A stretch of DNA of 64,000 nt from Minisyncoccota bacterium (lineage in GTDB: Bacteria > Patescibacteriota > Minisyncoccia > Phycocordibacterales > UBA9973): contig JBAZSF010000003.1 in NCBI GenBank assembly GCA_041662525.1, positions 14,187 to 78,186 of the forward strand, in the 5' to 3' direction. The position numbers and the translations under genes are program-made. Of the stretch, positions 3,256-19,667 are shown one piece after another. Under the pieces are notes generated by a model, which was not told the DNA's origin, ran no database searches, and saw nothing but the letters and a program-made list of their open reading frames with translations. The stretch's first letter is position 1. Each line of letters begins with the position of its first letter.

Positions 3256-3648
3256 TTACAATATAACGGGCTGCAACATGCCCACTTGGTTGCCTTCGGT
3301 GTCTTTAAACATTACAAATTTACCAATACCGGATATGTCCATTACTTCTCCTACTGTCTCACCGCCGGCTTTATTAACAATATCCATATGCTCTTTAAGA
3401 TTATCCACTGAAATAACAACATGGGGAATTGTTCCGTAATCACCTTTTTTAAAAAAACCACCGTTTATCGCTCCCTTGTTAATATGCATATTGTTTTTGT
3501 CCACGGGAGAAGTGGTCGCTAAAAGATAATCTTTCATATCAGGGCCGAGCTGAGTCATTTTCCAACCAAAAACACTCTCATAAAATTTTTTAACCCGAGT
3601 ATTGTCTTCAACTGGCATTTCAAAATGTACCACAGGATTCATTTTCAT
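3256..3648 (-). CDS. VOC/glyoxalase-bleomycin resistance family protein
   Basis: 130 aa; N-terminal VHFEMPVED..KKFYESVFGW pattern of the glyoxalase/VOC fold. Confidence 0.65.
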   Translation of the reverse strand: MKMNPVVHFEMPVEDNTRVKKFYESVFGWKMTQLGPDMKDYLLATTSPVDKNNMHINKGAINGGFFKKGDYGTIPHVVISVDNLKEHMDIVNKAGGETVGEVMDISGIGKFVMFKDTEGNQVGMLQPVIL

Positions 3649-3850
3649 ATATTTTTTTTAATTATTCTATTAATAATAAGAAAATAATAAAATACAATTG
3701 TTAAAATAAGATTAAAATTAAAATAAATGCAGATTATATAACTAGATTCTTGCAAAAGAAAAAAATGGATTTCCTTTTTCCTTTTTTTAATACTAAATTA
3801 ATCTTTGATTGATACGATTCATTTATTATTATAAATTTAACATTTTTAAG

Positions 3851-4555
3851 ATGAATAAAAATAAAATGTATTACTATGGGGGTGGGTTGATTGTTGTTTT
3901 AATTATTATTGCAGGTTTAATATATTCATATTCAACACAGCAAAAAAAAGATCTCGTTGATGCTGTCTCGCAAAAAGCGATGACTTTTTTTGTGACTAGT
4001 GTTAATCCAGGAAAAGGAGCTGACCTTGGAGGATTGTCCGGAGCAGACAACTATTGCCAATCACTTGCGCAATCTGCTGGCGTGGGGAATCTTACCTGGC
4101 GCGCATATTTGAGCACTACTGCCACTGGAGGATCCTCTGTTGTAAATGCACGTGATCGTATTGGAAATGGTCCTTGGAAAAATTTTGCAGGAATTACTAT
4201 TGCTAATAACTTAGATGAGTTACATGGAATTAACAACATCAACAAACTGACAGCTTTGACTGAAAAAGGCGCGACAATAAACGGACGTGGGGACACTCCA
4301 AATTTGCATGATATTTTGACTGGTTCTGGAATGGACGGCAGAATAATCCCCGGAGAAGCCGATACTACTTGCGGTAATTGGACAAAAAGTGGAGACGGAG
4401 CAGCTATGCTGGGACATCACGACAGAATAGGAACCAGTGACACCGAAGCGGCTAGATCATGGAATTCATCTCATCTCTCACGTGGTTGCAGTTTGGATGC
4501 TTTAGCTAGTTCTGGTGGTGGAGGACTGTTCTATTGTTTTGCAATAACAAAATAG
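3851..4555 (+). CDS. membrane-anchored/secreted Cys-containing protein, unknown function
   Basis: ORF 3809-4555. A likely start is ATG at 3851, followed by a hydrophobic helix. Conserved-looking motifs include TCGNWTKSGDG and GHHDRIG, and the C-terminus is FYCFA. Local GC is visibly higher than surrounding DNA. Confidence 0.45.
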   Translation: MNKNKMYYYGGGLIVVLIIIAGLIYSYSTQQKKDLVDAVSQKAMTFFVTSVNPGKGADLGGLSGADNYCQSLAQSAGVGNLTWRAYLSTTATGGSSVVNARDRIGNGPWKNFAGITIANNLDELHGINNINKLTALTEKGATINGRGDTPNLHDILTGSGMDGRIIPGEADTTCGNWTKSGDGAAMLGHHDRIGTSDTEAARSWNSSHLSRGCSLDALASSGGGGLFYCFAITK

Positions 4556-4657
4556 TAATTATTAATTTAAACTTTTTGTTTTATTTTATCTCCACTCTCT
4601 TAAAATATTAAATTTGGACACAACTATAAAACATAGACGATATTCTAATAAATATCG

Positions 4658-5308
4658 TTAAGGGCAGACAAACTCACAATTAGGACCAGTGCGCCCAACA
4701 TAAGAACCATCAGGGCATTGTTTAGCATCCGCAGTGCAAGCAACAGGTTCTTTTGTTTTTGGTCTATCTGGCAAATTAATTTTGACTTTATCATTAATAA
4801 CTTTATCATTTAAAACTTCACAATCTATTTGTGACATCTGAAACCCTGTAGTTAATTTTGTTTCATCTTTATATAAATAAACCCCATCTCCTCTATCAAC
4901 CATTTCTCCAAAAAAAGCAACGGCACTTCCTTCACCAAATTCAATTTTTAATTGTTCTGTCACATTCATACCTTCAGCGAAAGAATCCCACCAGACATCG
5001 GCGATACGTCCGCTAATCTTGGGGTCCATTTTGCCAACCATCCCATTAAATTTTCCAATCTTGCTATCTTTTTCGGCTGGAAGATTTTGATATTCACCAG
5101 TTACTTTATCACTTAAAATACTCATTTTAAGCCAGGCGCGATCAATAAGACCACTTGCAGTGTCTTTAGAATACTGATAACACATAGCGATAGGTTCTGG
5201 TGTTAGATCGTTTTGGATTATTTCTGACTTTTTATTTTTAAAAAGAAAAACAAAAATCACGACCAAAATAAGAACAATGATAGCTATATAAATTAGTATT
5301 TTTTTCAT
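4658..5308 (-). CDS. membrane-anchored hypothetical protein, Cys-rich C-terminus
   Basis: 216 aa with an N-terminal TM helix; C-terminal CTADAKQCPDGSYVGRTGPNCEFVCP. Confidence 0.45.
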   Translation of the reverse strand: MKKILIYIAIIVLILVVIFVFLFKNKKSEIIQNDLTPEPIAMCYQYSKDTASGLIDRAWLKMSILSDKVTGEYQNLPAEKDSKIGKFNGMVGKMDPKISGRIADVWWDSFAEGMNVTEQLKIEFGEGSAVAFFGEMVDRGDGVYLYKDETKLTTGFQMSQIDCEVLNDKVINDKVKINLPDRPKTKEPVACTADAKQCPDGSYVGRTGPNCEFVCP

Positions 5309-6751: not shown

Positions 6752-6957
6752 TCTTTCCTTACAGGAACAGTATACCTTTTGTACTTTTTTCTCCCGCCAC
6801 AGCGGAATCAAAAAGACACAAAAGCTTTTCGCTCCCTACACGAAAATAAAGCAGTTTATTTTCTCCCCGGAGCCGTAAAAAGTAAAACGCCTGCTTTCGC
6901 AGACGTTAAACTTTTTTGGCTCCGGGGGTAGGGATCGAACCTACGACCAATCGCTTA

Positions 6958-7533
6958 CACTTTATCTCCTATTGCTAGAAGTGTGGACTATATCATCTTC
7001 ATATCTTTTTTAAAAAAGACTTAGAAGCAAGGCGCTTCCACCGACAACTTGTCGATGTACTCCAATAAATGGATAGTCTCTACACCTTCCCTAACACAAT
7101 GTTAGGGCTTGGCTCGGGATTACCCTGAGAGTTTGTCTCGAAGGGCTTCCCCGAATTCACCTTGTTTTTCAACCTACCTTTCAATAGGAAGCTGCGTAAT
7201 ACCTTCATGTATTTCCATATGACAATTTGCACACAAGAGAACGCATTTTTCAATTTCTTTTTTAATACGTTCCCAAGATCTCGTTAACCCCCTAGAAGAA
7301 AGATCAAATTCTTTTTCTTTTGGATTAATGTGATGAAAGCTTAAAGCTCTCTGACATTTCTTATAGCCACATAAAATACATTTACCGCCTTTATGATCTC
7401 TAGCCATTTCACGAAGTTTTTTTCTTCTTCGGCTAACAGCTAAAACCATATATTCTCGACGATCGGCATAGGTTCTGGTTTCTACTCTTTTCTTTTTGGT
7501 ATACACAAGTAGATTATACCACAAACCTCTGAC
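6958..7533 (-). mobile_element. group I self-splicing intron (IC3-like core) carrying an HNH endonuclease ORF
   Basis: A 576-nt insertion sits between anticodon-loop nucleotides. The 5' exon ends in U and the intron ends in G. The 3' 216 nt contain AAUCCCGAGCCAAGCC and GGGAAGGUGUAGAGACUA ... UAAGUC (P7-like GACUA/UAGUC), resembling cyanobacterial tRNA-Leu group I introns (from memory). Confidence 0.7.
7174..7449 (-). CDS. HNH homing endonuclease (intron-encoded)
   Basis: Motifs CILCGYKKCQ ... HHINP ... CANCHMEIH give an HNH zinc-finger nuclease signature. The ORF track starts at a TTG (7524); the first ATG gives 91 aa. The ORF lies wholly inside the intron. Confidence 0.75.
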   Translation of the reverse strand: MVLAVSRRRKKLREMARDHKGGKCILCGYKKCQRALSFHHINPKEKEFDLSSRGLTRSWERIKKEIEKCVLLCANCHMEIHEGITQLPIER

Positions 7534-7690
7534 ACAGGCGACCGCTCTACCGCTGAGCTACCCCGGAATTTATTTATCTTTAAAAAGAACTTTTCTTATA
7601 GTAACAGAAATTTAAGAAAAAACAAATTGAAAAATTACTATTATGGTTTGCATTTTAAACAAAATAAGGTAGAATAGTTTTGTTAGATAA

Positions 7691-7766
7691 GGGCCCATAG
7701 CTCATCTGGTAGAGCGCCTCATTTGCAATGAGGAGGTAAGGAGTTCGAGTCTCCTTGGGTCCACCA
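7691..7766 (+). tRNA. tRNA-Ala(UGC)
   Basis: 76-nt cloverleaf GGGCCCATAGCTCATCTGGTAGAGCGCCTCATTTGCAATGAGG...TTCGAGT...TGGGTCCACCA with anticodon TGC and the G3-U70 Ala identity pair; CCA is encoded. Confidence 0.9.
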
Positions 7767-8628
7767 TAGAAGACTCAACAGGCAGAAATGCCTGTTTTGT
7801 TTTGAAAACACAAGCTACTTCTCTTGTTCCAAATATTTTATTTTCAAACGTCAGACCTTGGGGAAATTGGAACTCCTGTAATTTAATTTTTATGCTTATA
7901 TTTTTTATTGCAGACCATATTTTACTTGGCTGTTTTAAATATTCTTCCATAAATTCAATCATCTTTTCATAATCAGCATCACTATTGGGAATATTAAAAA
8001 GCGAAGAACTCGTTTCCATTAATTTAATTTCTATAATTTCTAATTGTTGCTTCAATATATTGTCATTAATTACCCCATCAAGATTTTTCTTAATTATTGC
8101 AGACTGTCTTTCATTTAATTCTTGTATACATTTTTGTAATTTCTCTGCTTCTTTTCTTTTTTCAGAAGTTGCTTTAATAAGATTATCTCGCACAAGTATT
8201 TTTAACTTTTGATAATGTTTCTCATCCAGTCCATATCTATCCATATATTCTCTAAAACTTTTTTCAAATTCATCTCTTGGGTAGCTTGATTTTTCATTCC
8301 CAAAACGATAAAAAGGATATTTTTTGCCACTTCCACTAGTAGACCAACTTCCTGTTAACACCTTACCATCATTATTTTTTACAAACTTACGAAGAGGAAA
8401 ATCTGGGTGATTTTTAAGATAAGCAGAGTGCTTACGTCCTCTACTTTTTAAAACCCTTTGCACTTGATTAAAAAGTTCTTCTGAAATAATGGGTTTAAAA
8501 TTACCCTTGTGCTTCTCCCCAAACTTTACAATCCATCCCGCAAAAAGTTCATTGGTAAGCATTGAATAAAAATATCCTTTTGAGAAAGGCTTACCTTTTT
8601 TATTCAATAAGCCCTCTTTTACCATCAT
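7702..8628 (-). pseudogene. large serine recombinase C-terminal part (recombinase domain, degenerate Zn ribbon, coiled coil); frameshifted relative to the N-terminal fragment
   Basis: Motifs GKPFSKGYFYSMLTNELFAGWIV and FKPIISEELFNQVQ are typical of the serine-integrase recombinase domain. The zinc-ribbon cysteines are absent. The frame is open from about 8700 and overlaps the N-terminal ORF frame. The last 21 codons are antisense to tRNA-Ala. Confidence 0.7.
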
Positions 8629-8657
8629 TCTTCGTACTTCTTCTGTTGGATAAGTAT

Positions 8658-9254
8658 TTAAGGCAATAAGTTCAAATGTTTGAGTATTAAAGGAGACATT
8701 ATTTCATCCTGTGCAATAGTAGCTCTACCCGCTACTTGAACGTTCTTATAACCCACTGTAGCCATCCAAACATAGCGACCATCTCTCATAGCATCTTTCA
8801 TTCCACCTGCACAACGTTCTGCACGTACATCATTATCAAACTGTGCTACGTTAGCAAACATATTTTCCATAAATTTACCTTGTGCTGTATCTTCAAAATA
8901 CTCTGAAGTAGATTTAATCTCTATCCCATATTTTTTAAAGAAAAGGCGAAGATGGCTGTAATCTTCAACACTGCGAGAAAGACGGTCTACTTTATATATA
9001 ACAACTACTCCTACCCTATTCTTTTTATCTGAGCAAAAAGCCAGAAGTTTTTGAAGCTCCGTTCTATTTGCTGTTTTTGCACTCTCCCCCTGTTCAATAA
9101 AAATCTCCGTAATATCATAATCATTTTTAAAACAATATTCCCTACAGATTTTTTCTTGTGTACTCAAACTATTACCTTCATCAACCTGCTCCTTTGTAGA
9201 AACTCTCACATATATTACTGCTCTTTTTTTAACTACATTGTTTACTAAGTTCAT
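8658..9254 (-). CDS. large serine recombinase, N-terminal catalytic (resolvase) domain fragment
   Basis: AVIYVRVSTKEQ catalytic Ser motif and resolvase-domain architecture. Ends just before the next ORF, in an overlapping frame. Confidence 0.85.
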   Translation of the reverse strand: MNLVNNVVKKRAVIYVRVSTKEQVDEGNSLSTQEKICREYCFKNDYDITEIFIEQGESAKTANRTELQKLLAFCSDKKNRVGVVVIYKVDRLSRSVEDYSHLRLFFKKYGIEIKSTSEYFEDTAQGKFMENMFANVAQFDNDVRAERCAGGMKDAMRDGRYVWMATVGYKNVQVAGRATIAQDEIMSPLILKHLNLLP

Positions 9255-9465
9255 ATTCTTTTTTATCCAAAAACGCCTCCACTAAAATATTTGCCAAATA
9301 GTTTAATGATTCATTTTCAGAAGAGTTATTATTAATATCTTCTACACACCAAGATTGAGAATAAATAACTTTCTTATCACATTGATTTATTAAATTCTCG
9401 TTTCCAACACTAATACTTTTCTCAATGATTTCATCAACATTGATATTTTCTTTTACAAAATTCAT
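9229..9465 (-). CDS. hypothetical protein
   Basis: 78-aa ORF with no recognisable motifs. Confidence 0.3.
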   Translation of the reverse strand: MNFVKENINVDEIIEKSISVGNENLINQCDKKVIYSQSWCVEDINNNSSENESLNYLANILVEAFLDKKEYELSKQCS

Positions 9466-9574
9466 TTACTACATCATTCTTTTAATCTCTAGCTGTCTAT
9501 GCAATGCAAGGATTTCTAAATTAGATTAATAAAAAAATCTTTCCCACAAAGAAAAGATTTTCGACATTATCTTT

Positions 9575-19369: not shown

Positions 19370-19667
19370 GGTCTTGCATCTATAAGCCGAATTTTGTAAT
19401 CCAACCGAAGTCAGATGAAAGTAATTTATCTAGGTACCGCATTGCTGCGAGACTCAAGCGATTCTCTCTAGCCGAAGCTAAAGCACGATCTTGCACACAC
19501 GTAAGTATTTTGCCGTTTCACCCGAACTAAATCGGTTCGTCACTGTTCGCAACTCTATCCTTGCGGACGACGGGCGTTACCCGCTACGCTTTCCCAACAC
19601 TAGGCTGGAATGTGTGTTCGGACTTTCCTCCCCGACATAAGCCGGAGTAACTATCAAACGCAGGACC
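19370..19667 (-). ncRNA. rnpB: RNase P RNA (bacterial type, compact)
   Basis: The minus strand contains GGGGAGGAAAGUCCGAAC (P4 5' strand), GGGUAACGCCCGUCGUCCGCAAGG, GGGUGAAACGG and ACAAAAUUCGGCUUAU (P4 3' strand); the ends pair as P1. Confidence 0.8.

Follow-up and report, generated by a model that had tools for sequence, protein, structure and literature searches.

A candidate integrative element at a tRNA-Ala gene of a Minisyncoccota bacterium, with a predicted attachment site inside its serine integrase gene

A 64,000-nucleotide stretch of a Minisyncoccota bacterium (GenBank assembly GCA_041662525.1, contig JBAZSF010000003.1, positions 14,187 to 78,186; hereafter the window, whose coordinates are used throughout) contains a frameshifted gene for a large serine recombinase, referred to here as the integrase, that terminates within a tRNA-Ala(UGC) gene on the opposite strand. 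The gene lies at one end of a segment of ∼9.0 kb (∼7759–16756) that we interpret as an integrative element, with attachment (att) sites at its two junctions, attL and attR. The features on which this interpretation rests are the following open reading frames (ORFs), sites and terminators, the latter taken from a scan of the plus strand between 7600 and 17000.

7691–7766, plus strand: intact tRNA-Ala(UGC), the predicted integration target (ARAGORN; Rfam tRNA, 67.5 bits)
7702–8628, minus strand: ORF 2, recombinase domain (308 amino acids (aa); Pfam PF07508 Recombinase, E 1.5e-9)
7702–8681, minus strand: distal part of the integrase, with the recombinase domain, hairpins that resemble a zinc ribbon but lack cysteines and enclose a coiled-coil insert, and a 21-aa tail (Pfam, alignment, and AlphaFold 2 (AF2)/Foldseek on homologs)
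7759–7764: putative attL core, GTCCAC on the plus strand and GTGGAC on the integrase strand, at tRNA positions 69–74 (acceptor end, discriminator and C74)
7777–7804, plus strand: replacement intrinsic terminator for the tRNA (CAGGCA-GAAA-TGCCTG and a T-run), antisense within the integrase codons K-T-K-Q-A-F-L-P; second-best plus-strand site in the scan
8658–9254, minus strand: ORF 1, proximal part of the integrase with the resolvase catalytic domain (198 aa; Pfam PF00239, E 5e-34)
8679–8681, minus strand: frameshift site, an A3 run for A4 in homologs, that is, a 1-nt deletion (protein and DNA alignments; identical in contig L081)
16673–16756, minus strand: detached native integrase tail, VDLDFIFWNRFARECEYLVAILKEAKE and a stop codon (tail hidden Markov model (HMM), E 2e-16), homologous to the C-terminus, contiguous there, of homologs lacking a tRNA overlap
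16751–16756: putative attR core, GTCCAC, repeating the attL core in direct orientation (repeat unit 8992 bp)
16810–16853, plus strand: native tRNA terminator, outside the element and ∼55 nt beyond the core (14 pairs and a T-run); best plus-strand site in the scan

One recombinase gene in two reading frames

ORFs 1 and 2 are the two parts of a single large serine recombinase gene, as had been proposed in the initial annotation, which placed a ±1 frameshift near 8630–8700. When the protein obtained by joining them was used as the query of a protein database search, more than 100 intact, single-ORF homologs of ∼515 aa were found, with 53–77% identity and ∼100% coverage; where a source is stated, which is so for few of them, the name is Nomurabacteria, Pacebacteria, Paceibacterota or Parcubacteria. 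The catalytic residues R17, S19 and D90-R91-R94 are conserved in the window integrase, and in an alignment of 23 sequences S19, D90, R91 and R94 do not vary, while conservation of R17 is at least 90%. The PF07508 score of the window ORF is 38.5 bits (cut-off 21.1), compared with 34.7–48.1 bits in homologs.

The reading frame of ORF 2 remains open upstream to ∼8715, so that it overlaps the end of ORF 1 by ∼55 nt. Alignment to intact recombinases, which the initial annotation had suggested as a means of locating the break, matches ORF 1 through ...MSPLILK and resumes in the other frame at TFELIAL.... The minus-strand run at the break reads CTC-AAA-CAT where homologs encode PLI[LRKQ]KTFELI, and at the DNA level five homologs have AAAAC ATTTGAA and the window AAAC ATTTGAA, which places one missing A at 8679–8681. 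It had also been considered that homologs might be naturally split as two genes; they are single ORFs, and a profile search of the other tRNA-overlapping loci found one recombinase ORF in each, except in L024, where the match starts at residue 79.

It is likely that the one-base lesion is real. A second public contig (ENA ERZ27249449, MEGAHIT-style k141_767153, 4815 bp) is 100% identical to window 7246–12060, deletion included, and, with three or four bases, the run is rather short for a homopolymer error of the systematic kind. Provided that the deletion is real, the window element represents a recently immobilised and probably dead copy, recently because everything else in the gene and its sites is intact: neither stops nor other frameshifts occur, no damage is seen in the tail, the two cores or the two terminators, and outside the lesion identity to intact homologs is 77% along the whole gene. 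The same intactness, together with the nature of the change, a single base in a homopolymer (A3 versus A4), also favors a sequencing or assembly error, in which case the integrase would be intact and the element still mobile, with the rest of our interpretation unaffected. We regard such an error as possible, though clearly the less probable of the two.

A family of cysteine-less recombinases that end within tRNA genes

The query matched 413 loci in reference genomes, of which the best 80 were fetched and examined. In the window the integrase stop codon (7702–7704) lies inside the tRNA-Ala(UGC) gene, in agreement with the initial annotation, and 65 of the 76 tRNA nucleotides are read in antisense to give a 21-aa C-terminal tail, VDPRRLELLTSSLQMRRSTR, before the stop. 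Almost all close homologs end in ...SSxVDPTGLEPATPSLQMRCSTR, which is likewise the translation of an antisense tRNA. The recombinase ORF ends inside an antisense tRNA in 39 of the 80 loci, and the codon phase through the tRNA is identical in all 38 loci that have a T-loop anchor, the window included. Ala-UGC is the target in 30 of these 38 loci; Leu-UAG, Leu-GAG, Arg-GCG, Arg-CCU, Lys-UUU, Tyr-GUA, Val-GAC and Glu-UUC make up the remainder, and Ala-CGC and Ala-GGC are found as well. Since the overlap recurs in 39 loci and in a single phase, it is not due to chance, nor is the run-on an accident of an abutting gene. ‘Recombinase family proteins’ of ∼515 aa whose sequence closes with ...GLEPAT..LQMR.STR are chimeras that include antisense tRNA code, and such ends represent neither native C-termini nor pseudogene decay.

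The zinc-ribbon cysteines, previously taken to have been lost from the window integrase, are absent from every aligned member of the family. In their place lies a conserved segment, LTGSWSxGRxKKYPFYRFG, that contains no cysteine in any member, and a search of the family members for PF13408, the four-cysteine zinc-ribbon domain, gave no match even at E ≤ 1. Thus, of the earlier proposal that the integrase is decaying and the island immobilised, the immobilisation of this copy is probably correct if the frameshift is real, while the missing cysteines and the tRNA overlap are not signs of decay.

The other 41 loci lack a tRNA overlap. Their titles name Chitinophagaceae, Bacteroidota, Bacteroidia and a few differently named metagenome-assembled genomes, with Limnovirga, Flavipsychrobacter and Parasediminibacterium as cultured hosts, and in all of them the gene extends 26–71 codons past the end of the match, with no tRNA there. 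The Bacteroidota members (Chitinophagaceae and others) are 44–60% identical and share the cysteine-less architecture, a motif of a small upstream ORF (described below) and the tail motif, but differ in that the tail is contiguous and no tRNA is overlapped. The family therefore occurs in both Patescibacteria and Bacteroidota, and by fold and domains it belongs to the large serine recombinases, of which it is an atypical group.

Three metagenome contigs (L091, L093 and L094, the sources of proteins P0084, P0065 and P0073) also carry a contiguous tail in a Bacteroidota-like context, with Por_Secre_tail/T9SS-tail proteins nearby, and their recombinases adjoin genes for a TrwB-type coupling protein and ArdC antirestriction protein. 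These neighbors suggest that the other branch of the family serves conjugative or mobilisable elements.

The AF2 model of P0048, a homolog of the contiguous form, has a mean predicted local distance difference test score (pLDDT) of 83 and shows, in order, a catalytic domain, a recombinase domain, beta-hairpins around a long coiled coil (strands 301–316 and 466–474 flanking helices 344–420), a linker and a C-terminal helix. The linker, residues 491–495, corresponds to the att core and has a pLDDT below 50; it is followed by a confident helix at 500–523. The best Foldseek matches are full-length serine integrases (9dxd, Bxb1 9iu2, PhiC31 9rah and LI 4kis; E 1e-10 to 6e-20). In the AF2 model of P0001, a homolog of the integrated form, the tRNA-encoded tail has a pLDDT below 50. 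On these models, integration would exchange a helix for a peptide that is probably disordered.

A detached C-terminal tail and short in-frame cores

Comparison of the window with its close relatives L002 and L006 revealed a conserved block at 16.58–16.76 kb. On the integrase strand it translates as ...FLS-VD-LDFIFWNRFARECEYLVAILKEAKE followed by a stop codon, with no long ORF or start codon ahead of it. A non-coding RNA was considered for this block and rejected, Rfam giving a 27-bit match to an L20 leader and RNAalifold a weak structure on both strands; the translation is that of the integrase tail. The same tail is contiguous with the body in homologs lacking a tRNA overlap, for example L016 (...SSQVRLGVQFWNSFAKECDYLVEILKESERQHS and stop), as it is in many metagenome proteins of 524–553 aa.

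Including the window, 16 loci have a detached tail, situated 3.8–10.3 kb upstream of the integrase–tRNA junction, and each of these tails starts at a short core identical to that junction. The core is GTGGAC ± 1–2 nt in 15 tRNA-Ala loci and TGTCC in the tRNA-Lys locus, GTGGAC being the reverse complement of acceptor positions 69–72, the discriminator and C74. Both window cores read as Val-Asp codons in the integrase frame. When body and tail are joined across the core, the window protein reads ...AFLPVESSMVD-LDFIFWNRFARECEYLVAILKEAKE and aligns without gaps across the junction with the contiguous P0048 (59% identity over 64 aa, E 2e-24). All 25 tail-HMM matches at E < 0.05 are on the integrase strand. 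The detached tails contain no in-frame stops, compared with 35 and 21 in the other two frames (16 × 24 codons), and pairwise divergence at codon positions 1, 2 and 3 is 0.39, 0.33 and 0.56, third positions being the most divergent. The detached tails are thus under coding constraint, as read from their sequences.

The attL and attR junctions share 6–9 bp (GT-GG-AC, an imperfect palindrome) and nothing longer. The initial annotation had anticipated attR as a partial tRNA-Ala 3′ repeat up to ∼17.4 kb; the candidate attR at 16751–16756 does fall within that range, but no tRNA-Ala segment recurs beyond chance matches anywhere in the 64-kb window. In related loci the same search for a tRNA-Ala 3′ repeat found only further tRNA genes and, in a few cases, short pieces of the 5′ part.

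The arrangement of terminators is consistent with these boundaries. A hairpin and T-run follow the tRNA inside the element in all 16 loci, encoded antisense within the integrase codons K-x-K-D/Q-A-F, and the stems vary between loci. In at least 9 of the 16, the reconstructed attB, obtained from the tRNA side and the outer flank of the tail, consists of a tRNA and its intrinsic terminator. In the window, the plus-strand scan delimited the two terminators as 16810–16845 (native) and 7777–7796 (replacement). The reconstructed window versions are GAGTCTTCTATGGTGGACTTAGACTTTATT for attP and GAGTCTCCTTGGGTCCACAGAAAGAAAC for attB.

Because the tail is separated from the body at a shared core that is in frame, and is contiguous in homologs that do not overlap a tRNA, the integrase ORF appears to contain the attachment site, and such a location would in turn account for termination of the ORF inside the tRNA. 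We consider it very likely that 7759–16756 is an integrative element and that, in the Patescibacteria branch, attP is located within the integrase ORF, so that integration would swap the last helix of the protein. The initial annotation had inferred an integrative element abutting the tRNA-Ala 3′ end, and the boundaries given here, with a core at the end of the tRNA, agree with it.

In the proposed mechanism, attP would lie ∼27 codons before the integrase stop, in the flexible linker ahead of the C-terminal helix, and the tRNA 3′ end (acceptor and discriminator) would recombine with it at the GTGGAC core, probably at the central GG. Integration would split the gene. The body would stay at attL and continue in antisense through the tRNA until it meets a stop codon in the D-arm, acquiring a probably disordered 21-aa tail, and the native tail would be left at attR, 9 kb from the body. 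The element arm would restore the CCA end of the tRNA and supply the replacement terminator, the element sharing or contributing the tRNA-Ala nucleotides from the core onward. On excision, body and tail would be rejoined in frame, and the tRNA would be restored together with its native terminator. In the window copy the 1-nt deletion at 8679–8681 would break the ORF between the catalytic and DNA-binding parts.

GT-GG-AC, an imperfect palindrome with a non-palindromic center, would suit a serine-recombinase crossover. The arm on the integrase side mimics, in inverted form, the tRNA acceptor and T-arm, with complementarity in 13–16 of the 16 loci at offsets 2, 3, 7, 11 and 12, and the tail-side arm instead carries a conserved TTTTGGAAC (F-W-N codons) 16–24 nt from the core. 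Extra copies of the core with a few tRNA-side bases occur in the outer attR flank of L008 (∼3620–3674) and L026 (∼1980–2029), within a long palindrome with the native terminator, and short tRNA-Ala 5′ fragments lie just past the intact tRNA in L001 (11615–11643) and L010 (11664–12060); these may be scars of earlier events.

Several observations weigh against this interpretation. Of the ∼30 loci whose 10-kb flank is complete, only 16 have a tail within reach. Metagenome contigs were scanned for exact empty-site junctions, with 0 matches each for the window attB and for the one common to L006 and L013, and homologs of a flanking pyrroloquinoline quinone (PQQ)-dehydrogenase gene led only to short contigs that end before the site. 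An excised circle was not found, L082, which has a contiguous gene, being without terminal overlap, and the Patescibacteria copies with a contiguous tail could be fusions in tandem arrays and not free forms. Outside the core the reconstructed attP shows scant dyad symmetry, and attL is the most symmetric of the sites, which is not the textbook serine-integrase pattern and suggests that the tRNA-like half-sites are what is chiefly recognised. Finally, the frameshift is a change in homopolymer length, and the second contig that carries it may derive from related reads.

Tandem arrays do exist. L012 (378–2192) and L041 (5452–7143) each contain another, more distant recombinase body that is joined to the downstream element's tail, as predicted for a second insertion into an occupied site. 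The same arrays, and the absence of an observed free form, would also be expected if the detached tails were relics of older, decayed integrases and not the attR halves of the present elements. This is unlikely, as 14 of the 16 loci have no integrase-like sequence upstream of the tail and homology starts exactly at the core; in addition, a tRNA-type terminator lies outside the tail, and the tails are coding and stop-free, occur once per element and are always on the integrase strand.

That the window holds a classical tRNA-linked island, whose decaying integrase has run on into the tRNA by chance and lost its cysteines, is very unlikely. The integrase does adjoin the tRNA 3′ end and the frameshift is present, but an accidental overlap is at odds with 39 loci and the single phase of 38, intact members all lack the cysteines, there is no tRNA 3′ direct repeat in the window, and the detached tail starts at an in-frame shared core.

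It is still less likely that the recombinase is a domesticated host gene, such as a regulator or an invertase tied to the tRNA locus, and not a mobile integrase. It is very widespread in Patescibacteria and most often found at tRNA-Ala-UGC, as domestication would predict, but at least 10 different tRNA genes are used and some genomes have two copies; the complete 0.68-Mb chromosome of L024 carries elements in tRNA-Ala(GGC) and tRNA-Ala(UGC), at 3477–5056 and 9929–11331. The cores are direct repeats, which would lead to excision and not inversion, and the Bacteroidota relatives lie beside conjugation genes. Cargo is unrelated even among close relatives: the host genes of L002 and the window show 88–92% amino-acid identity, yet their elements measure 4.6 kb and 9.0 kb.

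Programmed −1 ribosomal frameshifting or transcriptional slippage joining the two ORFs can scarcely be entertained, for although the frames overlap by ∼55 nt and the shift needed is −1, the overlap has no X XXY YYZ heptamer or long A-run and the homologs are single ORFs, in contrast to IS3-type genes with a programmed −1 frameshift, which have a slippery heptamer and two-ORF homologs.

Element content, host flanks and relation to known systems

The remainder of the element contains a small ORF, RNA features, among them two S-adenosylmethionine (SAM)-riboswitch-like aptamers, and a cargo region.

9229–9465, minus strand: small ORF overlapping the integrase start in a different frame; C-terminal motif SLNYLANILVEAFLDKKEYE conserved across the family
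9564–9666, minus strand: SAM-riboswitch-like aptamer facing the small ORF and the integrase (Rfam 44.6 bits, gathering score 44.4)
9866–9969, plus strand: second, weaker SAM-like aptamer facing a short ORF and LOOT (Rfam 39.5 bits)
10314–10433, plus strand: LOOT RNA (RF03000; Rfam 81.2 bits, gathering score 46.4; model positions 1–121)
10932–16571, no strand assigned: cargo region (Pfam)
10932–11921, minus strand: PIN_12 protein (Pfam)
12051–13169, minus strand: Mrr-type restriction endonuclease (Pfam)
13172–13543, minus strand: Top1-type zinc-ribbon protein (Pfam)
13729–16053, plus strand: 774-aa protein, cargo
16095–16571, plus strand: 158-aa protein, cargo

The small-ORF motif, (E/D)xxLDYLAxILVEAFLDxK, occurs upstream of the integrase in at least 28 of the 80 loci, in Patescibacteria and Bacteroidota, and weakly resembles the helix of the integrase tail (ECEYLVAILKEA). 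The product is possibly a regulator or directionality factor. The two SAM-like aptamers of the window have diverged in sequence and are divergently oriented; an invertible segment between them was considered and rejected, no inverted repeats having been found. In L002 a SAM-riboswitch aptamer at 9288–9394 (minus strand) scores 61.4 bits.

LOOT is present in 13 of 16 delineated elements. All 15 matches in the ∼485 kb scanned lie less than 4 kb upstream of a family integrase, mostly on the opposite strand; besides the window, LOOT-bearing loci are L001, L002, L006, L008, L011, L013, L014, L019, L025, L026, L029, L040 and L041. In the window, a promoter and terminator scan gave LOOT its own promoter-like site (10265–10293) and terminator (10464–10483). 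A role as guide RNA for target choice was considered and rejected, the best matches to attP and attB being 6–8 nt, no better than those of shuffled sequences (mean 7.1).

We also entertain, as a tentative and rather doubtful proposal, that the tail swap serves as a state switch. While free, the element would produce the full-length form, with a C-terminal helix in support of integration at attP × tRNA. After insertion it would produce the tRNA-tailed isoform, which would differ in directionality, being able to excise or else locked. The product of the small upstream ORF, with a C-terminal helix like the lost tail, might modulate the reaction, and LOOT would be a functional partner of recombination or maintenance.

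The cargo is unrelated between elements, 129 ORFs falling into 109 clusters. Defence-like cargo across the elements comprises AAA_15/AAA_21 (OLD/Gabija/PARIS-type) ATPases, Abi_C, PIN_12, Mrr, methyltransferase, ResIII and PD-(D/E)XK proteins.

Host markers bracket the element in the window, with tRNA-Asn on the left and the PQQ-dehydrogenase gene and RNase P RNA on the right. NCBI lists a protein identical to the dehydrogenase under Candidatus Paceibacterota bacterium. The anticodon loop of the tRNA-Asn(GUU) gene (6917–7568, minus strand) is interrupted by a group I intron of 576 nt (Rfam 68 bits, 6965–7261) that carries an HNH endonuclease ORF (7174–7524); in L001 this tRNA is uninterrupted, and its 3′ exon is identical to that of the window at 41 of 41 positions. 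The bacterial RNase P RNA (19367–19666, minus strand; 96.8 bits, just under the Rfam gathering score of 100) is inverted in L001 and L002 relative to a flanking conserved segment, and L002 lacks the four genes at window 19.66–24.6 kb. Together, the inversion and the gap point to a second rearrangement or indel hotspot beside the island.

The window enzyme has the domain order and catalytic Ser/Arg of the large serine integrases (Bxb1, PhiC31 and Listeria A118/LI; PDB 9iu2, 9rah, 4kis and 9dxd), and its junctions have a very short core in common and no long repeats, as would be expected of such enzymes. It differs from them in having no zinc-binding cysteines, a tRNA 3′ end as target, an attP apparently within its own ORF, an extra C-terminal helix and asymmetric att half-sites. 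Free-form relatives were sought in viral, plasmid and phage sets; identity to the window enzyme reached at most 32% in IMG/VR, and no copy above 29% was found in PLSDB or INPHARED. Classical tRNA islands with tyrosine integrases also have the integrase beside the tRNA 3′ end, a restored tRNA end and accessory or defence cargo, whereas their tRNA 3′ direct repeats are ∼15–60 bp and here only 6 bp are repeated and the enzyme is of another class.

Closer parallels in design come from two systems that also integrate at tRNA genes: the attB sites of phage Mx8 lie at tRNA-Asp genes, and SSV1-type integration targets are tRNA genes. In Mx8, attP is located within the int coding sequence, and integration gives the gene a new 3′ end and an altered protein (PMC6070905). 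In the SSV1-type integrases of Sulfolobus fuselloviruses, the att site is inside int and the gene is partitioned on integration (PMC5861418). The window enzyme resembles this design but belongs to neither group, as its chemistry is that of a serine and not a tyrosine recombinase. Mx8 Int/IntX is a tyrosine recombinase of a 49-kb phage, whereas here non-viral islands of 4–10 kb would exchange ∼27 codons; the SSV1-type enzymes are tyrosine recombinases of archaeal viruses that are divided into two large fragments, whereas here the catalytic and DNA-binding body would stay whole and the frame open. No description of a serine-recombinase system of this design was found in the searchable full text, which is no proof of novelty.

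If our interpretation is correct, the element represents a serine-recombinase counterpart of the att-in-integrase design of Mx8 and SSV1, known in the searchable literature only for tyrosine recombinases, and the tail swap provides a testable model for how directionality is set. The compact, cysteine-less integrases with conserved tRNA targets would be candidate genome-engineering tools, and LOOT RNA, an orphan motif, would gain a genomic home. Element boundaries would be exactly predictable from the tRNA 3′ end, the GTGGAC core and the detached tail, defining a widespread family of small integrative elements in Patescibacteria (Candidate Phyla Radiation, CPR), whose mobile elements are poorly known.

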